Shown here: positions 34,320 through 64,000 of the stretch, in pieces
Layout: the number at the start of each line of letters is the position of its first letter
How positions within the stretch are numbered: the stretch's first letter is position 1
Source of the DNA: an uncultured Christensenellaceae bacterium
GTDB lineage: Bacteria; Bacillota; Clostridia; Christensenellales; Borkfalkiaceae
Direction: 5' to 3'
Length of the DNA stretch: 64,000 bases
NCBI GenBank assembly: GCA_910588685.1
Contig: CAJUPX010000005.1
Span: 28,544-92,543 of the forward strand
Position numbers and translations under genes: made by a program
Notes under the pieces: model-generated
Seen by the model: the letters and a program-made list of their open reading frames with translations, nothing else
Told to the model about the DNA's origin: nothing
Database searches by the model: none

Positions 34320-35903
34320 TTACATAAGCGGGGCGAAAATTCTCAAAATTCCGGCGACAATTCGGTGTTTAAAGCTGTTACTTTTTACGTTTTTACCGCC
34401 TAATCTCTCGCTGCACGAAATTGTATACTCAAAATCAGCCCGCAAATCATCTAAAAACGCTTTGTCGTCGGTCAGCACGGCGCACTCGAACTGTTGGTAA
34501 AAACTGCGCAGGTCGATATTTACCGACCCCACAGCCGCCTGTGTTTCGGACATAACTGTTTTTGCGTGCACAAACGCGTTTTTCATACAGTATATTTTAA
34601 CGCCGGAGCTTATAAGCCTTTCGGCATTGTTGCGGGAAACCGCGTAAACATAACTCTTGTCCGGTATCTCCGGCAGAATTATGCGGACGTCCACGCCGCT
34701 GAGCGCCTTGTTTTTAAGCAAATCCGCGAGCGTGTCGTCCGTAATGAAATACGGAGTCATAATATACAGCTTTTCGCGCGCGTCGGCAATTATGTTTGCG
34801 TACGCGTTTTTGGCAATCGACTGCCCGCCGAACTCCGGTCCGCTTGCATAAGGAATAACAGCCGACCCGCTTTCCGTTCTCTTTGCGAGGTTGAGAAAAG
34901 GAGAATAATCGACGGCTTCGCCGGATACGTATTCCCATTGCCTCATAAACATAACGGTAAAAGCGTCCGCCGCCGGACCGTCTATACGCAAACCAACGTC
35001 TTTCCAGTAACCGTGCATACGCTTTTCGTTTATATACTCGTCGGCGAGGTTACACCCGCCTGTATACGCCGTTTTACCGTCCACCACTACTATTTTCCGA
35101 TGGTCGCGGTAATTGAGAGCAACCGAAAAACGCGGGATAAGTCTGTTAAAGGGCTGTATTTTAATGCCCGAATCTCTTAAACGCTTTTTGCATTTTGCCG
35201 AAAGAGTTTTATGGCTGCCCATATCGTCGTATATTACCCGCACGTCCACACCCTCTTTGACTTTGCGTGCAAGCACGTTGAATATTCTGTCGAACAATAC
35301 TCCGTCGGCGATAATAAAAAACTCAATAAAAACAAATTTTTCGGCGCGCTCCAACCTCGAAATTATATCGTCGAAAAGCTGTGAGCCGGACGGAAAATAT
35401 TTTATATCCGTGCCTGTATACGTGCGGAAACCGCCCGCACTGTACAAATAACGGCAGTTATTGCGCACCTCGGCGCAGGAGTCGGCTTCGTCGCCTGCGC
35501 CGAGGTATTTTTCGGACTCCGAAAAAATGTGCTTAAACTTTTTTTTCGCTCTGAAAAAAAACACGTTTTCGTCGGCGAGAAAATATAAAAAGTACCCGAA
35601 CGTAAATCCAAGCAACACTATAATAATCCAAACCGCTTTGGACTGCCCGTTTTTATCGGTGGAAAGCACGTACACAGCGGTTAAAAGCGACAGTACGAAC
35701 GCAACCGCCAGATAATAGCGGAACAGCATCATAAACTGCAGGTAAAAATAGAGCAGCACCGCAAAATTCAGCGCAATAAAAAAGAGAACGAGCGCGGTTT
35801 TAAAAAAACCGAAGCCCTTGGTTTCCGTTCTTATTTTTACCGACTTCGCCCTCTGCAGACGCTTTTTGCCGACGTATTTTTTAGAAGTTACCTTATCCGC
35901 CAT
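34320..35903 (-). CDS. cls: Cardiolipin synthase (two PLD/HKD domains)
   Basis: N-terminal TM helices. HKD motifs HRKIVVVDG and HAKTVMSET...NIDLRS. Confidence 0.85.
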   Translation of the reverse strand: MADKVTSKKYVGKKRLQRAKSVKIRTETKGFGFFKTALVLFFIALNFAVLLYFYLQFMMLFRYYLAVAFVLSLLTAVYVLSTDKNGQSKAVWIIIVLLGFTFGYFLYFLADENVFFFRAKKKFKHIFSESEKYLGAGDEADSCAEVRNNCRYLYSAGGFRTYTGTDIKYFPSGSQLFDDIISRLERAEKFVFIEFFIIADGVLFDRIFNVLARKVKEGVDVRVIYDDMGSHKTLSAKCKKRLRDSGIKIQPFNRLIPRFSVALNYRDHRKIVVVDGKTAYTGGCNLADEYINEKRMHGYWKDVGLRIDGPAADAFTVMFMRQWEYVSGEAVDYSPFLNLAKRTESGSAVIPYASGPEFGGQSIAKNAYANIIADAREKLYIMTPYFITDDTLADLLKNKALSGVDVRIILPEIPDKSYVYAVSRNNAERLISSGVKIYCMKNAFVHAKTVMSETQAAVGSVNIDLRSFYQQFECAVLTDDKAFLDDLRADFEYTISCSERLGGKNVKSNSFKHRIVAGILRIFAPLM

Positions 35904-47243: not shown

Positions 47244-47453
47244 TTATTCGTTTTCGCCGCCGCCCGTTTCGACAAACCAATCCTCTCTGGTGCATACATC
47301 GCCATTTGCGTTGATGTCCTCATAGGTCTTGCCGTCGAGGTCGTTTACCCAGATTTCCTGAGCGTCCTCAATTTCCTGTTGGGTCAAAATACCTTTTGCC
47401 CTGTCCTTGTTAGCCGATTGCAGCCACTTTTCTTTGCTGAATACCCTTGCCAT
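47244..47453 (-). CDS. Hypothetical small acidic protein
   Basis: 69-aa ORF overlapping the RT 3' end by 44 nt. Confidence 0.3.
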   Translation of the reverse strand: MARVFSKEKWLQSANKDRAKGILTQQEIEDAQEIWVNDLDGKTYEDINANGDVCTREDWFVETGGGENE

Positions 47454-48507
47454 CGTTGATGCCTCCGTTTAATTTTTTTGAGTGTTTACTTACTATGCTT
47501 TTTAATTTCCACTTTGGAGCAATCGGGTAAATTCGCTCCTTGTAGAATTTTAAGCCGTTAATGTGAGTTAGCCAGCCCGTAAGCGATAACAGCCCCTGAG
47601 CTTGCTTGACGGTTATGTGGTTCGCCTTTTTGACATTTCTCAGGCGGCGGCATAACCTGAAATAGATTTTCTTTCTGAGCAGTGTTTTGTTCTTGTAAAA
47701 ACGAAATCCCACAAAGTCTATCGGGCGGCTGTGAATTTTCCATATCTGGTAATTATCTTTCAGCTTTAAGCCGAGATTTGTTTTCAGGTACTCGTTCATT
47801 GCCTCAACAGCCCTGCGGAGCTTTCGTTTGTTTGTGCCGAATAACACCATATCGTCAACAAACCTTATGTAATCCTGCACCTTTAACTGCTCTTTCACAA
47901 AATGGTCGAATCTCTCTAAATAGAAATTGCTAAACCATTGAGAGGTGTAATATCCTATCGGGAGGCAGTCGCCGCCGTTCTCCAACACTTTCTCTATCAA
48001 CCGTAGAAATTTCTCGTCTTTGATTTTGCGCCTGAAAAGCGACATCAGGATTGCTGGCTTTACATTGTTAAAAAACTTTGATATATCCAGCTTAGCGACA
48101 TAGCGAGCCTTGCCCTGCTTGATAACACGCTCTATAAAGCGTTTTGCCTCCATACCGCCCCTGCTCGGTACGCTACCGCAGGAATATCGGTACATACCTT
48201 TCGTTATGACGGGCTCCACAACGAGCATAACCACCCAATGTATAATCTGGTCGGGATAAAATTTTGGTACCGTTATTATCCTCGTCTTTTCGCAGGAGCG
48301 GTCATATAGAGGGATTTGCTTGTTAGGGCTCAATATCACATCGCCCGTTTCAAGCATAGTCTTTATATTCTGTGCGTAGGTTTCAATATCGTTAAGGACT
48401 ACTGCAATATAGTCTTTTGTAGTCTTGCCCTGAGCGGCTTTATGTATCGCCAGCTTTATGAGGTCAAGATTTAACATCTTTTCGTATAGATAACCTACCC
48501 GTTTCAT
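47410..48507 (-). CDS. DGR-type reverse transcriptase (DGR-1)
   Basis: RT motifs RIITVPKFYPDQIIH, AKLDISKFF and YIRFVDDMVLFG (YxDD box). Has the DGR-diagnostic motif-4 IGYYTSQWFSN (I/LGxxxSQ). Lies adjacent to the TR. Confidence 0.9.
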   Translation of the reverse strand: MKRVGYLYEKMLNLDLIKLAIHKAAQGKTTKDYIAVVLNDIETYAQNIKTMLETGDVILSPNKQIPLYDRSCEKTRIITVPKFYPDQIIHWVVMLVVEPVITKGMYRYSCGSVPSRGGMEAKRFIERVIKQGKARYVAKLDISKFFNNVKPAILMSLFRRKIKDEKFLRLIEKVLENGGDCLPIGYYTSQWFSNFYLERFDHFVKEQLKVQDYIRFVDDMVLFGTNKRKLRRAVEAMNEYLKTNLGLKLKDNYQIWKIHSRPIDFVGFRFYKNKTLLRKKIYFRLCRRLRNVKKANHITVKQAQGLLSLTGWLTHINGLKFYKERIYPIAPKWKLKSIVSKHSKKLNGGINDGKGIQQRKVAAIG

Positions 48508-48624
48508 AACCTTTTAATCTTCTCACGGCGTTTCGAGATTTAACCTACTAAGCCGCCCTCTTATCGAAGTGTTTTTTGCCAAGAGGCAAGGATTGTGCGT
48601 GTTCCATAGACCAAGTAAAGATTA

Positions 48625-48733
48625 AAATGCGACCACCGATGTTCGAGTTCGAGTTAGACGAGTCATTGTTACCATTCCAATACCACAGACCGCCATTGAG
48701 CCTGTTGTTCCAATTACCGCCGACATTCAGCAC
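48625..48733 (-). repeat. DGR-1 template repeat (TR)
   Basis: 109 nt aligned to the VR at a +201 offset. All 17 mismatches fall on TR plus-strand T, which is A on the coding strand. In the VR frame it encodes an Asn-rich peptide, VLNVGGNWNNRLNGGLWYWNGNNDSSNSNSNIGGRIL. Confidence 0.9.
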
Positions 48734-48773
48734 CGCTGCACACACTACCCTATATTGTTGAATTAAATATACG

Positions 48774-48797
48774 CTAAGGGGGAGGTTTCCCCCTTAG
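48774..48797 (-). other. GC-rich hairpin immediately 3' of VR (candidate DGR target-recognition hairpin/cruciform)
   Basis: CTAAGGGGGA-GGTT-TCCCCCTTAG, a perfect 10-bp stem. It starts 12 nt past the target stop codon. Confidence 0.6.
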
Positions 48798-48808
48798 CAA
48801 TCCCTCTC

Positions 48809-49873
48809 TTAAAGAGGTTTATAACAAAGGCGACCACCGATGCTCGAGTACGAGTAAGACGAGTCACTGCTACCATACCAACACCACAGACCGCCATAGA
48901 GCCCGTCGACCCAAAAACCGCCGACAAACAGCACACAATAACCCTCATTCATAGTGCAATAATCACAGTAATGAGTAGAATCGCTTGCGCTTGTATCTGA
49001 GGCATAGCCGAGTACAGGAAATTTATCAAAATAAGAAATTTCCCTTATATAGCCGTCGAGGTCGTCTCCATCACTGTTACGAAACGGTCTATCGCCCATA
49101 TACATATAGGGAGCCGTAAACTTGTCGCTTTCGTATGCGGTAGGGTCAAGACAGACATAAATTTTCTCGTCGGAAAAATTTATACCGTCGCACCATTTCC
49201 AAATGTTGCCCCACGGATTCTCAATTCCTCTGTACTTGCAGGCGTGTTTGCCGTCCGTATTGCTCGTATCGGAGCCTGACGCTGTTTTTACGCCGTCCGT
49301 TCTACCCGTCTGTACTGCGGTCTCAAAACTTACGCCGTACTTACGCACTAAATCCTCTTTGGTGGTCTCAAAGAAAATAAAGCAGTATTCCATATCGTCG
49401 ATGTCGAAAATATGAGGCTGCCCCACAAAGTGTGTAGGAGCCCATATCGTTACTTTGACATCGCCTACCGTGTTATGCGTCTTTATGGAATTATCCCACT
49501 CAACGAGCCAGACAGAGCCCCCGTAGATGGGAGCATATCTTTCGTCGATGTCGTTCATTTTCTCGAACGGGAGGCGGTTGCGCTTATTCCTGAGCAGTTT
49601 TTCAACGCTCTTAGCGTTCCTCTCGTTCTTTTCGGAAAACACCTCAGGCGTTACCGCAGTTGTCGGCAGATAGCTTGAAAACTGACTCTCAATAAGCTCG
49701 TAAGTGATGTTTCTGCTCGTCTGCGCAGGCGTATCGGAGCCGTCAATTTCGAGGTCGCCTTTGTACTGTTTACTGTACTTGTTAAAGTCCTCAATCAAGC
49801 CCTCCATCTCGCTCTTAGCGTTTGCGAAAAGGTCTTTGAAAAAGTCTAATTTGTTTTCCTTATCAATTTGCAT
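48809..49873 (-). CDS. DGR-1 target protein: portal-like N-terminus fused to a variable C-type-lectin/FGE-like domain
   Basis: Residues 1 to about 190 look like an SPP1-gp6-type portal N-terminus, and the gene directly follows terL. The C-terminal part has GIENPWGNIWKWCDG and the VR. Confidence 0.75.
   Translation of the reverse strand: MQIDKENKLDFFKDLFANAKSEMEGLIEDFNKYSKQYKGDLEIDGSDTPAQTSRNITYELIESQFSSYLPTTAVTPEVFSEKNERNAKSVEKLLRNKRNRLPFEKMNDIDERYAPIYGGSVWLVEWDNSIKTHNTVGDVKVTIWAPTHFVGQPHIFDIDDMEYCFIFFETTKEDLVRKYGVSFETAVQTGRTDGVKTASGSDTSNTDGKHACKYRGIENPWGNIWKWCDGINFSDEKIYVCLDPTAYESDKFTAPYMYMGDRPFRNSDGDDLDGYIREISYFDKFPVLGYASDTSASDSTHYCDYCTMNEGYCVLFVGGFWVDGLYGGLWCWYGSSDSSYSYSSIGGRLCYKPL
48826..48934 (-). 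repeat. DGR-1 variable repeat (VR) at the 3' end of the target gene
   Basis: See the TR entry. Encodes VLFVGGFWVDGLYGGLWCWYGSSDSSYSYSSIGGRLC. Identical GC-rich segment GCGACCACCGATG at the 3' end (IMH-like). Confidence 0.9.
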
Positions 49874-57730: not shown

Positions 57731-60208
57731 TTACATCCAGTTGGGTTTAAGAATAACGTTTTCCGTACCGGTATAGTCGTAATAACGCGTAGCGCCGGAC
57801 TTGGAATAGCCGAAGTTTATGCCGTTTTCCTCTTTATTTTTTTCTTCGTTGTCGTTAAACCTTATAAGACTTGCGTTTATACCCGTCTGCTCGGCTACGA
57901 GAGTACCGTAATTATACAGATAAAATTTCAAATTGCGCATAAGCGGATCGATAGCGCCTATTCCGCGCAAGTGTCTGTTTGTCTGCGTCATTACGTTATA
58001 CGTGCCGTAATACATAAAGATATTCGAGTTGAAATTCGCTACTCCGTTAATGCTGTAACCCGCGTTTTTTATTGTTTCGGCGGGCAGAATAGAGTTCATA
58101 GCAACGGTAAACAGGTTTGCCCAGCACTTTATCAGCCCCCGCCTCTGCGCATCCGAGTTATACCCCAGAGCAGTCAGCTCGGAATCCGTATAAGCGCCGA
58201 GATAGACGTTTGCAAACTCGTACACGTTTATTCCGTCCTGGCTGCCTTCGTTTCCGAACGAGCCGGAATATATTTTAACCGTGGCGTTTGCCTGCCCCAT
58301 CTGACCGCGGACGAACAGACCGCCGTTGCGCCCGTCGAACGTTCCGCCGTAGATATTGACGTTTGCAGAACCCGTAACCTGCACGCCGTAATGGCTTGCC
58401 GGACCGGACGCCGTTATCTGCGGCGAACCGCTGCCGTGGTTAAGATTTCCGCGGAACTCCCCGTCCCTGATGTTAATAACCGAATCGCGCGTTTCGTTTT
58501 GCGACGCAGCAGCGTCGCTTGTAGCAGTTACCGCATTGCCGTATTCGGCTGTGAAAGTGCCGTAATTTACGGTTATGTCGCCCGCGCGCGAAACTATCGC
58601 CGCGCCGCCGCTCAGATTAGGATAAAAACTCCACCCGCCGTAAATTCCGGGTTTTTCCTTATGATGTTCGGCAACGTAAACAAGCTCGCCGTAATGCGCC
58701 CTGCCGCGCGTTTCGATTTTTATTTTGCCGTCGCGGTCTTCCGAAACGTCGTTTTCGTCGCCGAGCACAATCGAACCGCCCTGAACCTTAACGCCGCCTC
58801 CCACCGAGGATACTATGTTGCAGCGGTTAATCCTTATATCCCCGCCGAAACAGGCAACGGCAAAGCTTTTAATTACGAAATTATCAAAATAAACGGTATC
58901 TCCGCTCGCCGCGGTGTCGTACAGGTTATAGTCGTTGTAGAGTCCGCGGAAATTGAGGTTTAACTGACCGTAGCAGTTGAACTCTCCGCCCTCCACTCTT
59001 ATTGCGTTGTTATTTTCGTACACGCCCGTAAAGGTATATTCACCGGTCAGAGGATTTCGCTCCCTCTGCCAGGGTACGTATACCGAATACTGGTGCTCGG
59101 CGGCAGCAGCAGCCAACGCGCTGTTTGCCACGTTGCACGAAGCTTCTTTACCGCTGAAATCGAACTGCGCATCGCCGGAAACTCCATTGCTGCGCCTGTT
59201 GAGTTCGCAGTTTACGTTGTAGCTCGCGCCGCTGTTTTCAAACGTTAAATTACCGGCATTTACGCCTATCGCCGTTGCGTTGTACGAATTGATTTCCGCG
59301 CCGCCCGTAAAAGTAAGACTGCCGCCGTTTACCGCAACGCCCATACCCTGGGAATTGATTACCGCGTTGCCGACCGTTACCTTTCCGCCGGGTTTTATGC
59401 CGTTCGCGTCGTCGCGCACAGAGTTGAGATATACTCCAACGGACGTGGCTCTTCCTCTGTACGCGCTTACCGTTCCGTCGGGATTTGTTATCGTAATATT
59501 GCCCATACCCTCAGGGTCTTCGCCGACGTAGGTTTTGAATTCGAGATCCCTCGAGCCTGCAACATAACCGCTTTTTGCAATGTTTACGGTTGTGGAGTCG
59601 AGCTTTAAATTAACTGCGTCGCCCACCCCGCCTTCGGTTGAGGGCGCCGTTCCCATATTGACGGCGTAAACGCCGAAGCTGTTGGAACCGCTCGTTATGG
59701 TTATATCGCCGCGGACTATATCTATATTTCCGCGCGTTGCGTATATACCGTACGAATCGGAGCCGTGTATAATAAAATCGGTATCCAAACAGTCCAAATC
59801 GGTCTGGATTACTTCTTCGGAATTTGTACCCCTCGCAAGTATGCCGTAGGTGGTTTTTCCGTCGGTGCCGGAAATAAGCTCTTTTTCAACCGTAAAAATA
59901 CTGTCCGTTACTCTGACCTTGCCGCCGCGCATAAATATTGCCGCATCCATCGCCGACTTGTCTATCGATTCGTCGTCGAGCGGTCTGGGGTCGTCCGTAT
60001 GCGACAGCGTCGCTTTTTTGTGGAAATTTGCACCCGCAACCGAAAGCGTACCGCCGCGCATTGCTATTATGCTGCCGTTATAGGAAGTAGCCGAGCCGAG
60101 CTTTTTTATGTCCACCACAGGAGGCGTATCCGAACACTGGGAGCTGTTTGTATGCAGTACAGGGTTCGTCGCCTCAATTCCTCTGTACGGCGCATAGCCG
60201 TCAGACAA
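57731..60208 (-). CDS. Large Gly/Asn/Thr-rich repeat protein (beta-helix-like), probably 5'-truncated
   Basis: 825-aa ORF. The only start is a TTG placed directly on the T-tract of the upstream terminator, with no RBS or signal peptide. Its composition is unlike the flanking phage DNA. Confidence 0.4.
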   Translation of the reverse strand: MSDGYAPYRGIEATNPVLHTNSSQCSDTPPVVDIKKLGSATSYNGSIIAMRGGTLSVAGANFHKKATLSHTDDPRPLDDESIDKSAMDAAIFMRGGKVRVTDSIFTVEKELISGTDGKTTYGILARGTNSEEVIQTDLDCLDTDFIIHGSDSYGIYATRGNIDIVRGDITITSGSNSFGVYAVNMGTAPSTEGGVGDAVNLKLDSTTVNIAKSGYVAGSRDLEFKTYVGEDPEGMGNITITNPDGTVSAYRGRATSVGVYLNSVRDDANGIKPGGKVTVGNAVINSQGMGVAVNGGSLTFTGGAEINSYNATAIGVNAGNLTFENSGASYNVNCELNRRSNGVSGDAQFDFSGKEASCNVANSALAAAAAEHQYSVYVPWQRERNPLTGEYTFTGVYENNNAIRVEGGEFNCYGQLNLNFRGLYNDYNLYDTAASGDTVYFDNFVIKSFAVACFGGDIRINRCNIVSSVGGGVKVQGGSIVLGDENDVSEDRDGKIKIETRGRAHYGELVYVAEHHKEKPGIYGGWSFYPNLSGGAAIVSRAGDITVNYGTFTAEYGNAVTATSDAAASQNETRDSVINIRDGEFRGNLNHGSGSPQITASGPASHYGVQVTGSANVNIYGGTFDGRNGGLFVRGQMGQANATVKIYSGSFGNEGSQDGINVYEFANVYLGAYTDSELTALGYNSDAQRRGLIKCWANLFTVAMNSILPAETIKNAGYSINGVANFNSNIFMYYGTYNVMTQTNRHLRGIGAIDPLMRNLKFYLYNYGTLVAEQTGINASLIRFNDNEEKNKEENGINFGYSKSGATRYYDYTGTENVILKPNWM

Positions 60209-60218
60209 AAAAGAAAAA

Positions 60219-60252
60219 GCCCGCAGGACGGCGTGTTTGACCGTCTGCGGGC
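60219..60252 (-). terminator. Rho-independent terminator after the lysis-like module
   Basis: GCCCGCAGACGG-N9-CCGTCCTGCGGGC on the minus strand, followed by TTTTTCTTTTTT. Confidence 0.7.
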
Positions 60253-60260
60253 TTTTATTG

Positions 60261-60719
60261 TTATTCGTTTACTTGGTCGCTGTCATTGCTTTCAGGCGTT
60301 GTGGCGCCTTTTTCGGCGGTTTCCGTGGGTGTTTTGTCTGCTTCCGGCGTTTCAGTGATCTGTTCGGCGGTGGGTTTCTTAATTTTCGAGAACATGGCAT
60401 CGAACGCTTTGCTCAATAAATCACCGAGAGGCGTCGCCTTAATTGTTGCGTATATTGCCTGATCCAGAGTGAAGATAGCACCAGCGAGGGCGAAGTAATA
60501 CTCGGCCGCGAATTGCTTCGTCGCCAGCAAGTAGATGGCGGCAGCTATGAGTGAGAAGCCGACCGCGATCGCCAGATAGATCCAGTGGCGCACATTTTCC
60601 TCGAGCTTGCTGAATACGTTGCCGTATTTCAGGATGCAGAGCAGAACGACGCCAGCGAGCGCTATGCCGGCAAGCGGCAGGCCGTATGTTTTTATGAAGT
60701 CGATGATCAATTCTTCCAT
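60261..60719 (-). CDS. Membrane protein (holin-like position)
   Basis: Three hydrophobic spans with an acidic/Thr-Pro tail. It is the last gene before the terminator. Confidence 0.35.
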   Translation of the reverse strand: MEELIIDFIKTYGLPLAGIALAGVVLLCILKYGNVFSKLEENVRHWIYLAIAVGFSLIAAAIYLLATKQFAAEYYFALAGAIFTLDQAIYATIKATPLGDLLSKAFDAMFSKIKKPTAEQITETPEADKTPTETAEKGATTPESNDSDQVNE

Positions 60720-60731
60720 GGGGTTGTCTCC

Positions 60732-61139
60732 TTATTTTTTAGATTTTTTTGTGTGAACTGGCCCGTCGCTATAAATTGCATTGATGCCTTGTTCTATGAG
60801 GAAGTCCTTTTGCTCGTGTTTGACTGTTTGCGCGTATTCAAGCGCAGCATGCATGTCGCCGTTGCAGTGAGCGTCTGGTATTCGCTGCACTGCCCGAGCC
60901 GTTGCTTCCCCGAGGGCGATCGCGGCGTTAATTCCTTTGATAGCGATGAGCTCGTTTTTCTGGCGAGCTTCTTCGCGCTGTGCTTCAAGTTCCTCTCGTT
61001 TCGCTTCCTTTGCGGCCTGCTCAGCATCGCGGGCCGAGATTTTGCGCTGTAAACGCCAGAAGAAGAATCCGACGGCGGCGCTGATAATAGCCGAAGGTAA
61101 GCCGATCGCGAGAAGGAACTGCCAGACTGTTATTGTCAT
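60732..61139 (-). CDS. N-terminally membrane-anchored coiled-coil protein
   Basis: One TM helix followed by a charged helix, AEQAAKEAKREELEAQREEARQK. Confidence 0.35.
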   Translation of the reverse strand: MTITVWQFLLAIGLPSAIISAAVGFFFWRLQRKISARDAEQAAKEAKREELEAQREEARQKNELIAIKGINAAIALGEATARAVQRIPDAHCNGDMHAALEYAQTVKHEQKDFLIEQGINAIYSDGPVHTKKSKK

Positions 61140-61345
61140 TTCTTAGTCTCTCCTTGTTGCGAAAATTGAACAGCAGGGGTGGCCGTTGTCCCGAGGGTCT
61201 CGTTGAACTTCGTCTGCGCGGCAGCGATCCGCTCGGCGAGGTCGACGTCGTCCCTCTCGTTGAGACGTAGAGCCATGTCCCTGATGATGGCGTTCTGGGT
61301 TTCCACCAGTTCGCACAATGTCAAAATGAGTTGCGTGTTGTCCAT
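61136..61345 (-). CDS. Hypothetical small protein
   Basis: 69-aa ORF with start/stop overlaps with its neighbours. Confidence 0.35.
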   Translation of the reverse strand: MDNTQLILTLCELVETQNAIIRDMALRLNERDDVDLAERIAAAQTKFNETLGTTATPAVQFSQQGETKK

Positions 61346-61359
61346 CTTGAGCCTCCGCC

Positions 61360-61545
61360 TTATTCGGTCGCGAGTGGCTCGCCGATGAACTGCTCGTACT
61401 GATCCGCGTTGATCACGCCGTTCGCAACGTCCTCGGCGGCGATAGCCTTGACGTCGTTCTGAAGCTCGACAGGAACGGAAGCGAAGGCGCGGACGCCGCG
61501 CTGTATGCTGCGCCAGTAGCTGTAGGCGATAGTCTTGACTGCCAT
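61360..61545 (-). CDS. XkdX-like small phage protein
   Basis: 61 aa ending in the pattern ...VANGVINADQYEQFIGEPL, reminiscent of XkdX-family proteins that follow tail-fibre genes. Confidence 0.35.
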   Translation of the reverse strand: MAVKTIAYSYWRSIQRGVRAFASVPVELQNDVKAIAAEDVANGVINADQYEQFIGEPLATE

Positions 61546-61549
61546 CTTT

Positions 61550-61906
61550 TTAACCTCCTATAAGTTGTTCGTAGATTTCGATGAGCGCCTCGTCCTGTTG
61601 AGCTAAGCGCTCATAGAGGGCGATCGCGTTCTCGTCTGCCTGTTGGAGTTCCTCGGCCTGCCGCGCGGTTGTTGCGCGAAGTTCCGAGACTTCACGCCCG
61701 GCATCGGTCTCAATAATGAGAACGGCCTCGGCGCCCTCGATCTCGTTTTTGCCGGCGAGGTTATAGGGCGAACTATTGAAGGCGATGCCGACAGCTTCGT
61801 CTTTCGTTGCTTCGACAAATGTGCCCTCGGGGCTTCTTTTAATAAAACGGACGGAGTCGGTGAATCCGAGCTCCGTCCCGCTGGTTGTGATAATCTTGAA
61901 CATCAT
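61550..61906 (-). CDS. Hypothetical phage protein (XkdW-like position)
   Basis: 118-aa ORF. Context only. Confidence 0.35.
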   Translation of the reverse strand: MMFKIITTSGTELGFTDSVRFIKRSPEGTFVEATKDEAVGIAFNSSPYNLAGKNEIEGAEAVLIIETDAGREVSELRATTARQAEELQQADENAIALYERLAQQDEALIEIYEQLIGG

Positions 61907-62313
61907 GCACCTCCTTCGATGACTTTGAGAATATAGCGTAGCGTTGGTATGTCAGCATTAAAAAAAGCGTGATTCCATTGCCAGTGCTCAGGATGCTCAC
62001 GCATTTTATAAGGCTTCAGTTTTTCGTCGTTCCAGATTCGGCCCCACGCTTGGACGCGCTTCGCTTCGTCTTTCGGGTTAAATTGCGGCTGTAGGCGTTT
62101 CTGGATCTCCTGCGTTAGTTTCCCGCGTTCGATTCCGTTCCCGTCGTCGTTTCTTGCTAAATACTGGTGAGCGTTCTCACTCGTTACGAAAAAAAGCGGT
62201 TTCCCGTCTTTTTCGAGGATCTCACCGTTCAGGGTACAGATTGTACCGAACGGGAGGTTGACGGCGCCGCTCAAACATTTACAGCGAAGTCGTCTGTGAA
62301 CCACATATTGCAT
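61903..62313 (-). CDS. Hypothetical protein downstream of RT-2
   Basis: 136-aa ORF overlapping the RT-2 3' end by 43 nt. Confidence 0.4.
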   Translation of the reverse strand: MQYVVHRRLRCKCLSGAVNLPFGTICTLNGEILEKDGKPLFFVTSENAHQYLARNDDGNGIERGKLTQEIQKRLQPQFNPKDEAKRVQAWGRIWNDEKLKPYKMREHPEHWQWNHAFFNADIPTLRYILKVIEGGA

Positions 62314-63470
62314 GGCTGAGTGTCCTCCTTAAAATTTTGATTATACTCGGCAGAGAAGCCGAACAGGGCGAAAAACAGACGCCGCAGCCGTAAGACGCGG
62401 TTGTGGTCGTTGTAATTCTCGAAGTAGGCAAGGGTGCTTTGTGTCCCCATGCGTAGGTTTTCGAGCGTCATCTCTTTGCGCTCGATTTTTCCTTTGTAAG
62501 CCTTGAATTTTCTGCGGGCTCTTTTAACGCTCTCGCGATTGCCGTTCATAACGACGCGACCCGTCTCGGTGAGCGTGAACTTTGCTTTGCAAAATTTGAA
62601 CGACTTCGTCAGGGCTCGGATCTGTGTCTTTTTCAGGTTTACCGTAAGCCCGATCTCGTTAGCCTTTGCCGTTACCTTCTCGAGAATAGTGCGCGGATCT
62701 ATGTCTGGAGGTAGGATCAGGTAGTAGTCGTCCATGTAGTGGCCCGCGCATTTGATTCCGAGCTGGCATTTGATAAAATTATCAACCGGGGAGGGTATAC
62801 CGACCATCTCCATCTGACTGACTTCCACACCGAGCGGCAGACCGCGATCGCCCGGCATTGTTCGGACGATTTGGTCGGCGATCGCTTTAATATTCGAATG
62901 TTTCAGAAGGCGCTCGTGTCGTTTGTATACGGTCTCATGCGGGACTGAAGGGAAGAATTTTTTGAAGTCCATCAAAATGACGGACCCCTCGCGGCCGTAC
63001 CGCCTGAAGTGCCACCGCAGGTCGTCGCATAGTCCATGGAGCGTAAAATGGAAGCCTTTGCCCGGTAGGCTGGCTCCGTTCTTGTGGATCATGTCCGGCA
63101 AATACAAGGGCAGAAGCGCGCCGCGCGTGAGCGTTTTGTGGACCTGCCTGTCTTGTATTTTCGGAGCATCAATAGGGCGCACTTTTCCGCGTTCGCGGAG
63201 GGTGAAGCTGACATACTTCCCGGGCGTCCATTTTTTCTCGAACAGCTGTCGCCGGCGTTTCGCCGTTTCAGAGAACAGGTGCAGCTCGAAGCGCTGGGTG
63301 CTATTTTTCCAGCGGACCCCGTTGCAGCATTTTTTTCCTGCTTTGTACATGGCGTTGTATGTAAAAACGCGAGCTAATCCACCGACCGCTCGGGCGCGTT
63401 CGATTTTGCGTTGCTCGCGTTTTGCTTTTCGCCTTTGGTACCTTGCTTCGTGCCGTTCGTGGCTTGTCAT
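62271..63470 (-). CDS. DGR-type reverse transcriptase (DGR-2)
   Basis: CCNGVRWKNSTQRF, RERGKVRPIDAPKIQDRQVHK, ILMDFKKFFPS, LPLGVEVSQ (LGxxxSQ) and HYMDDYYL (YxDD) motifs. Start at MTSHER (ATG 63468-63470, RBS GAGGAG). Confidence 0.85.
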   Translation of the reverse strand: MTSHERHEARYQRRKAKREQRKIERARAVGGLARVFTYNAMYKAGKKCCNGVRWKNSTQRFELHLFSETAKRRRQLFEKKWTPGKYVSFTLRERGKVRPIDAPKIQDRQVHKTLTRGALLPLYLPDMIHKNGASLPGKGFHFTLHGLCDDLRWHFRRYGREGSVILMDFKKFFPSVPHETVYKRHERLLKHSNIKAIADQIVRTMPGDRGLPLGVEVSQMEMVGIPSPVDNFIKCQLGIKCAGHYMDDYYLILPPDIDPRTILEKVTAKANEIGLTVNLKKTQIRALTKSFKFCKAKFTLTETGRVVMNGNRESVKRARRKFKAYKGKIERKEMTLENLRMGTQSTLAYFENYNDHNRVLRLRRLFFALFGFSAEYNQNFKEDTQPCNMWFTDDFAVNV

Positions 63471-63699
63471 GAGTATTCGCTCCTCGCGCGGCTGTGGTGT
63501 CGGGTGCGTTCTAAGCCGCTTTGACCGTACACATGAAACGGGGGATCGCACGTTGCCCCGCCATGCAAGAAGCGTCCGTGCACGGTCGTCAAAAAGCTAT
63601 TTTGGAATATTCCGGGAAGCATCTCTCCTTTCGCATTGGTCTGATTCACTTGAAGCTACTACCTTTGACCTACTCCTTTTGAGAGTTTGCGAAATCCGG

Positions 63700-63810
63700 C
63701 GCGAGCGCGCGCGAGTTATTTGCATTGTTGTTGGAAGCCGACCCGCCGCTCGACCCGACGCCGCAGAAGTTATTGTTGTTATTGTAATTAGGCGACCGGG
63801 CAAAAGCGAA
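63700..63810 (-). repeat. Candidate DGR-2 template repeat (boundaries approximate; cognate VR not in window)
   Basis: The minus strand reads AAT TAC AAT AAC AAC AAT AAC TTC TGC GGC GTC GGG TCG AGC GGC GGG TCG GCT TCC AAC AAC AAT GCA AAT AAC. That is 11 AAY codons out of 25, non-coding, about 230 nt upstream of RT-2. Confidence 0.55.
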
Positions 63811-63849
63811 AGCCGACGGGCGAATATTCAGAGATGCACCCAAAAGATC

Positions 63850-64000
63850 TCACTCTTTTCTATTTTGTTTGTCCGACTTTAACACGCCTGTCAGTAGGGT
63901 GTTTTCTTTGTCTATAAGCTCTCCTATGGCTTGCGCCATTTTATCAAGTCGAGTGATCGCGTCGGACTTCGCGACCGATTTTCCTGAAGCCGTTTCAAAA
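63850..64000 (-). CDS. C-terminal fragment of an ORF ending just upstream of TR-2 (possible Avd-like accessory protein)
   Basis: Own translation: ...ETASGKSVAKSDAITRLDKMAQAIGELIDKENTLLTGVLKSDKQNRKE-stop (TGA at 63850-63852). Helical character and position between the expected VR and TR. Confidence 0.3.
   Translation of the reverse strand, partial: FETASGKSVAKSDAITRLDKMAQAIGELIDKENTLLTGVLKSDKQNRKE

Follow-up and report, generated by a model that had tools for sequence, protein, structure and literature searches.

The 64,000-nt window analysed here (C5:28544-92543, C5 being contig CAJUPX010000005.1) comes from a metagenome-assembled genome (MAG) of the uncultured mouse-gut Christensenellaceae (37 contigs, 1.83 Mb, 96% complete), and its right-hand edge cuts through a diversity-generating retroelement (DGR) read on the reverse strand. 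C5 extends for 1,153 nt beyond the window; positions above 64000 are therefore given as window-extended coordinates (C5 position minus 28543, reaching the contig end at 64001-65153; positions in locus L081 are these coordinates minus 60000). In its full extent the cassette comprises, in this order, the 3' end of a target gene with its variable repeat (VR), two hairpins with GRNA loops, an Avd-like gene, the template repeat (TR), a spacer named RT-2 RNA and the reverse transcriptase (RT) gene. We compared it with 80 IMG/VR relatives of the RT, with blocks of public assemblies anchored on either the Avd-like protein or a 135-aa protein encoded downstream, and with the DGR of FP_Taranis (Faecalibacterium phage, MG711467, Taranisvirus), its closest cultured relative, itself related to Roos and Pioen (PMC5883640, PMC11792537). 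Another DGR, DGR-1, occupies 47410-49873 of the same window.

The RT, called RT-2 here, is encoded by an intact open reading frame (ORF) of 399 aa at 62271-63470 (-). The protein matches Pfam RVT_1 (E 3e-12) and PHROG 1423 'Reverse transcriptase' (E 5.5e-66), and the motifs from which the original prediction had recognised a DGR enzyme, ERGKVRPIDAPKIQDRQVH, LGVEVSQ and YMDD, are all present in the translation; the latter two represent the (I/L)GxxxSQ and YxDD pair of DGR-type RTs. Models for group II, retron and DRT (defence-associated RT) enzymes scored far under their cut-offs when run against RT-2. The closest solved structure is a 328-aa RT chain, 8ub7_A (E 4e-9), which we take to be the BPP-1 enzyme. 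RT-2 is 100% identical to the RT of MAG MGBC157066, where the prophage is intact; its identity to the RT annotated in the FP_Taranis DGR is 53%. Translation probably starts at the ATG at 63470 (MTSHERH, 399 aa); the GTG at 63551 is an unlikely start because the relatives are called as 399 aa from MTSHERH and because a structured RNA covers 63459-63673. Broken RT genes are found in two of the other loci, L083 and L103, where they are called as 303 and 195 aa.

The TR is a 129-nt segment at 63690-63818 (-) with 26 adenines and 11 AAY codons in the reading frame of the VR; the AAY-rich segment that had been singled out from the letters alone (11 Asn codons, frame SPNYNNNNNFCGVGSSGGSASNNNANNS) lies inside it. 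The same prediction placed the VR just past 64000 and proposed extending the contig and aligning the added sequence to the TR, and this alignment indeed returns a partner repeat of 129 nt at 64421-64549 (C5:92964-93092; -), mismatched at adenines and ending in a GC-rich segment that resembles an initiation of mutagenic homing (IMH) site. TR and VR differ at 12 positions, all 12 of them TR adenines, which would happen by chance with a probability of ~4.5e-9 given 26 adenines in 129 nt. A sensitive blastn search of the genome with the TR found no VR besides this one. The TR is 100% identical in the present locus and 11 other public loci, and in each of these 12 copies the VR is diversified at adenine sites, with 10 distinct VR sequences that differ from one another almost solely at adenines; an adenine-biased TR/VR pair is also found in 65 of the 80 IMG/VR relatives. 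An invariant TR facing VRs that are all diversified at adenines points to a DGR family that is active in nature. One of the differences, the A-to-C change at TR position 123, after the CGCGCGCGCTCGCGCCGG run, is fixed in 12/12 VRs, for which reason it appears to mark the difference between IMH and IMH* and not a product of mutagenesis. In another locus the VR (L090:9777-9895) carries a 12-nt deletion, a further decay state of the same cassette.

Two GC-rich hairpins follow the VR on its 3' side (64335-64397, L081:4335-4397; -), the first beginning 23 nt past it. Each has a 7-bp stem with a GCCCGC...GCGGGC core, closed by a GAAA loop in one (64375-64392, with an outer stem to 64397) and by a GTAA loop in the other (64335-64352). 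As DNA the region folds at -27 kcal/mol (z = -3.9), and none of 200 shuffled sequences folded as well. Retrohoming needs a GC stem of 7-10 bp with a 4-nt GRNA loop, placed 4-34 bp after the VR (Guo et al., PMC3240598), and these hairpins, with the GC-rich IMH, correspond to the target-site cis elements described in that work.

Between VR and TR lies a gene of 154 aa (63850-64314, C5:92393-92857; -), of which the window holds 63850-64000; this is the ORF whose tail, ending at 63850, was suspected to be Avd. In the relatives this gene is always found between VR and TR, its product matches PHROG 30516 (E 3e-71), it is 68% identical to the protein encoded at the equivalent position in FP_Taranis, and the exact protein is found in 497 blocks of public assemblies. 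It is mildly basic (pI 8.55), and its AlphaFold2 model is a four-helix bundle (predicted local distance difference test score, pLDDT, 89.5). The top PDB fold match of the model is 2gsc (TM 0.81-0.88), which presumably belongs to the family that includes Avd, and which we treat as a lead and not as a test. Profile searches of Pfam, NCBIfam and the PDB gave no sequence match for this protein and no match to a solved Avd.

The spacer between TR and RT is a full-length match (1-222 of 222) to Rfam RF03077 'RT-2 RNA' at 63459-63673 (-), scoring 148.5 bits where the gathering threshold is 40 (E 1e-36). Weinberg et al. 2017 (PMC5737381) likewise described RF03077 directly upstream of an RT gene; they left the role of most of the RT motifs open, tying only RT-10, which occupies the TR-RT position in BPP-1, to DGRs and speculating that others have a part in DGRs as well. 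Here RF03077 is in the identical position in 11/11 related loci tested, FP_Taranis included, and because it lies 8-20 nt after a verified TR in 12/12 loci, we place it as the DGR spacer RNA of this gut-phage clade. RF03077 can now be assigned as the TR-RT spacer across a large clade of gut-phage DGRs.

The FP_Taranis DGR has the same order of target, Avd-like gene, TR, RF03077 RNA and RT. It differs in its host, Faecalibacterium as opposed to the mouse-gut Christensenellaceae of the present MAG, and in a 61-aa ORF that it also carries between target and Avd-like gene; and, unlike FP_Taranis, the present locus retains ~77 codons of target in a prophage that is largely deleted. The prototype, the DGR of Bordetella phage BPP-1 (mtd-avd-TR-brt), shares with the present cassette (i), adenine-specific differences between TR and VR, and a tail-fibre gene whose 3' end holds the VR; (ii), a fixed IMH/IMH* difference and, past the VR, a GC hairpin closed by a GRNA loop (PMC3240598); and (iii), a structured RNA between TR and RT (PMC5737381) and, between VR and TR, the gene of a small helical accessory protein. 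There are also differences: the spacer is RF03077 and not RT-10, no sequence similarity can be detected between the Avd-like protein and its BPP-1 counterpart, two tandem hairpins stand where BPP-1 has one, the similarity of the RTs is distant (E 4e-9), and the variable domain is not recognisable as the C-type lectin fold of Mtd. By analogy with BPP-1, RT-2 and the Avd-like protein would bind the transcript of TR plus spacer, the TR would be copied into cDNA with misincorporation opposite adenines, and the cDNA would replace the VR, with the IMH at the end of the VR giving the direction and the hairpin assisting. In intact copies, the product would be a 664-aa tail fibre diversified over its C-terminal ~35 residues, in a temperate myovirus-like prophage of ~45 kb carried by mouse-gut Christensenellaceae.

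That product is not encoded in the present genome. The VR lies in a stump of target gene at 64413-64648 (-), which, by tblastn and alignment, consists of the last ~77 codons and the stop codon of a 664-aa tail-fibre-like protein (residues ~588-664). Searching the whole genome by tblastn with the targets of five relatives returned only these last 76-77 residues and no other target body, and homology to all 12 relatives compared ends at 64648. An intact VR-bearing target is thus missing here, while sister genomes have one of 660-664 aa; the stump is also short of ~210 residues of the conserved C-terminal domain on which the VR is scaffolded in the relatives (alignment A2). In the 17 IMG/VR relatives examined the VR terminates a tail-fibre-like ORF of 620-1700 aa, and in the public-assembly blocks genes for the tail tube, tape measure, Tail_X, gpD, Baseplate_J and Tail_P2_I are followed by the 660-664 aa target, Avd, the RT and six small genes. 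A tail-fibre or receptor-binding target had been predicted to lie just past the edge: its nature holds for the intact relatives, where the target is tail-fibre-like and follows Baseplate_J and Tail_P2_I, but what actually lies past the edge is a stump of ~77 codons fused to a fragment of integrase. The intact target is 44% identical to that of FP_Taranis over the C-terminal 418 residues. The targets of Roos and Pioen are reported to be DUF6273 proteins with the VR at the C-terminus (PMC11792537); an hmmscan of Pfam with an intact target relative detected no DUF6273 at E <= 0.05, and BFVD fold matches to DUF6273 proteins are weak (E 2e-3 and 5e-2), the other matches being tail-fibre-like. A profile search of the PDB with the variable domain returned nothing, and no C-type lectin fold of the Mtd or TvpA kind was recognised.

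The stump is joined at 64646-64648, in antisense, to a serine integrase gene. The integrase fragment (64644-65101, +) matches the Recombinase domain (Pfam PF07508, E 6.6e-23) and PHROG 95 'integrase', and is 99.4% identical, from residue 127 of 511 onwards, to the integrase of G057, a sister species of the same genus (MGBC156628, contig CAJULB010000002) that carries the same prophage intact, ~45 kb long and with a 664-aa target. Of the large serine recombinase only the Recombinase domain is present here, the complete 511-aa gene being found in G057: the missing residues 1-126 contain the catalytic domain with its YGRYSS motif, the zinc-ribbon region is cut off at 65101, and no Resolvase domain was detected in the fragment or anywhere on C5. 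We considered whether the fragment could be the integrase that adjoins the cassette in another locus, L087, but their identity is no more than 32%; the fragment comes from the integrase of the prophage itself, which lies at the far end of it.

Comparison with G057 places the junction at 64633-64648, where 16 nt of the flanks overlap with imperfect similarity (10/16) and an exact AGG is shared at 64646-64648. In G057 both flanks are on one contig, the cassette flank ending at 35035 and the integrase flank starting at 74466, and since ~39.4 kb separate them, the present genome lacks ~39.4 kb of the ~45-kb prophage. The interval in G057 encodes the remainder of the target, the baseplate and tail, the major head protein, protease, portal and large terminase, along with two ParB-methyltransferases, a regulator and codons 1-126 of the 511-aa integrase. 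Such a deletion would have occurred at the short microhomology, as in illegitimate recombination. Lost with it would be the start of the integrase gene (codons 1-126), the repressor gene, the early genes and those for the DNA methyltransferases, then the genes for terminase, portal, protease, capsid, tail and baseplate, and the target up to codon ~587. What remains is a 4.54-kb block that begins at 64648 and ends at 60106-60111; its identity to each of six public loci, L110 among them, is 99.3-99.6%. A phage attachment site (attP) inside the target gene was considered as the cause of the junction and rejected: the integrated prophage of G057 has both genes intact, and the microhomology at the junction is imperfect.

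We therefore read the locus, with a probability of roughly 0.85, as a genuine and complete FP_Taranis-like DGR cassette, of a type common in gut phages, that was stranded as a relic by the ~39.4-kb deletion of its prophage. Several observations weigh against this reading: the junction is seen in a single metagenome-assembled contig, and its exact 30-nt pattern has no match in public collections of genome or metagenome contigs; the VR stump can be read within a 169-aa ORF with a GTG start (64413-64922), so that expression is possible; the Avd assignment comes from position and a generic four-helix fold, with no sequence-family match; and AlphaFold2 gives a pLDDT <50 over the VR of the variable domain, which has no PDB fold match at E < 1.

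The first of these bear on the junction itself, which could in principle be an assembly artefact: the intact prophage would then be real, and the contig a chimera, or one minor variant, in which the end of the target has been connected with the integrase. In favour of this, the genome is a MAG of 37 contigs, this contig ends 505 nt past the junction, VRs are known break points for assemblers (several IMG/VR contigs end near the VR), and no other public assembly has the junction. A chimera is nevertheless unlikely because the flanks share 3 exact nt (10/16 in the imperfect overlap), far under any assembler k-mer, and because the missing ~39 kb is absent elsewhere in the assembly, where tblastn detects no target body and the integrase fragment is unique. 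Independent decay states are moreover common in other genomes, including a truncation of the target 40 nt away. We infer that the junction is biological and not an error of assembly.

Granted that the deletion is real, all cis and trans parts of the cassette would be intact, but the VR would sit in a promoterless stump that lacks both a receptor-binding scaffold and its native start. Any mutagenesis that remains would therefore have no functional output, and the cassette has most probably lost its function in the present genome. The opposite view, that the cassette is still active and that the 169-aa ORF or another transcript yields a hypervariable peptide now owned by the host, has several points in its favour: RT-2 is 100% identical to the intact-prophage copy, hundreds of copies encode exactly this Avd-like protein, no DGR part is damaged, the GTG ORF reads through the VR, and the neighbouring DGR-1 offers an in-frame portal::target fusion. 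We consider such a co-opted stump very improbable. The first 91 residues of the 169-aa ORF, an artefactual one, are antisense-integrase sequence without homologues; no signal peptide or ribosome-binding site was identified in it, the ~210 residues of the domain that scaffolds the VR are gone, and a junction unique to the present genome gives no sign of selection.

The relic is read here as ordinary prophage decay in an ordinary member of a known DGR clade, and decay has taken other forms in other genomes, with left ends at a 253-aa baseplate gene or at Tail_X. In GCA_948966785.1 (L084:9627-9667) the target has been truncated independently, ~40 nt upstream of the present junction, and joined to unrelated DNA; VR, Avd and RT are retained there. 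This raises the question of whether the retention of VR stumps is random: DGR activity, through aberrant cDNA integration or nicking, might seed deletions close to the VR, or selection might keep the VR-Avd-TR-RT module. Three independent truncations upstream of a VR, at 99 nt (here), ~140 nt (L084) and ~380 nt (DGR-1), would fit such a bias, as would the fact that 2 of roughly five left end points fall within the last 240 nt of a ~40-kb interval. The numbers are very small, though, and a look-up anchored on Avd favours copies that keep the cassette; the unbiased downstream anchor also reveals remnants without DGR (L101 and similar ones) and a broken RT (L103), the end points do not coincide with the VR boundary, and the microhomology at the junction is ordinary. 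Non-random retention is thus quite improbable, and three VR-proximal truncations form a sample too small and too biased for a claim about mechanism. Were the module indeed kept by selection while the prophage decays, bacteria would gain a route to capture phage hypermutation cassettes; recurrent VR-proximal deletions would become important only if a larger survey confirmed them.

The main value of the locus is as a clean and fully resolved example of a relic DGR, in which prophage decay can be viewed exactly, before and after, by comparison with the intact prophage of a sister species at 99.5% identity. Inactivated DGRs are common: in their survey, Wu et al. 2018 (PMC5758913) discarded more than half of the candidates because of stop codons, truncation or a poor match between TR and VR, and the present case is one such product of decay. 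It departs from those inactivated DGRs in that the enzyme side is untouched and the target alone beheaded, with an intact parent prophage available at 99.5% identity. A DGR finder would score this cassette as functional despite a target stump of 77 codons, which calls for caution in DGR censuses in MAGs.

The integrase fragment has itself been broken a second time. From 65102 to the contig end (65153) it is replaced by foreign sequence, the similarity to the G057 integrase stopping at 65101, before the zinc-ribbon motif; this second break fits progressive decay. The cut follows '...FVLTG' and precedes the zinc-ribbon CxxC (65099-65153, L081:5099-5153). In another species, G031 (L096:1505-1560), an identical stretch of 55 nt breaks into the gene of a different serine recombinase, at the homologous codon, and other genomes of the genus have pieces of the same sequence at the ends of contigs. 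Its source may be a mobile element, or a phage, that inserts specifically into recombinase genes. Elsewhere in the present genome, a second homologue of the recombinase domain lies at C2:45163-45645 and is 35% identical to the integrase fragment; as no Resolvase match was found on that contig, it may be another serine recombinase truncated at its N-terminus.

Downstream of RT-2, six genes (60106-62313) reach the end of the prophage within the 4.54-kb block, in an order that is conserved among relatives. All are on the reverse strand: from the RT outwards they encode conserved proteins of 136 aa (61903-62313), 118 aa (61550-61906), 61 aa (61360-61545) and 69 aa (61136-61345), followed by two membrane-protein-like ones of 135 aa (60732-61139) and 152 aa (60261-60719). 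Matches among them are to PHROG 29409 and PHROG 9428, neither of which has a functional label. The 'XkdX-like' label once given to the 61-aa gene finds no support from hidden Markov models (Pfam, PHROG), and a holin label tried for the small genes has no such support either. The 135-aa protein is unchanged in 1,111 blocks of public assemblies, and there may be a reason for the retention of this conserved end of the prophage. In GCA_948660115.1 (L101) a remnant retains the genes of 117, 61, 69, 135 and 152 aa with no DGR, as do 7 similar places, and L107 and L108 begin inside this gene set at contig ends. Where the RT-2 prophage homology ends (60106-60111) begins a repeat-rich ORF of 825 aa (57731-60208, -) that lies between two phage remnants; it has no Pfam or PHROG match.

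The second of these remnants belongs to DGR-1, with its TR at 48625-48733, its VR at 48826-48934 and 17/17 mismatches at adenines. Like the DGR of RT-2 it is a genuine DGR in a decayed prophage, in which a large deletion has left a VR-bearing stump: its target, of 354 aa, resembles a portal in its N-terminal part and a tail protein in its C-terminal part, an in-frame portal::target fusion. It differs in having an unrelated RT (RT-1 and RT-2 are 23% identical over 173 residues, in agreement with the initial judgement), no Avd gene between VR and TR, another spacer and another parent phage. That spacer, between TR-1 and the RT-1 start, is Rfam RF03021 'RT-18 RNA' (48511-48588, -; 51.5 bits, gathering score 41.3), so that the two DGRs of the window have different RNAs of the catalogued 'RT motif' kind in their TR-RT spacers. 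The remark that two different DGRs lie within 15 kb is true, but they do not form one element with two working DGRs; they belong to two adjacent decayed prophages, each with a beheaded target. A third DGR is found elsewhere in the genome (C9:67971-69490), with its VR at 67971-68086, its TR at 68197-68312, 18/20 mismatches at adenines and an RT whose ORF ends at C9:69490 and which is 44% identical to RT-1 and unrelated to RT-2. A fragment of an RT is also present at C14:18912-19376.

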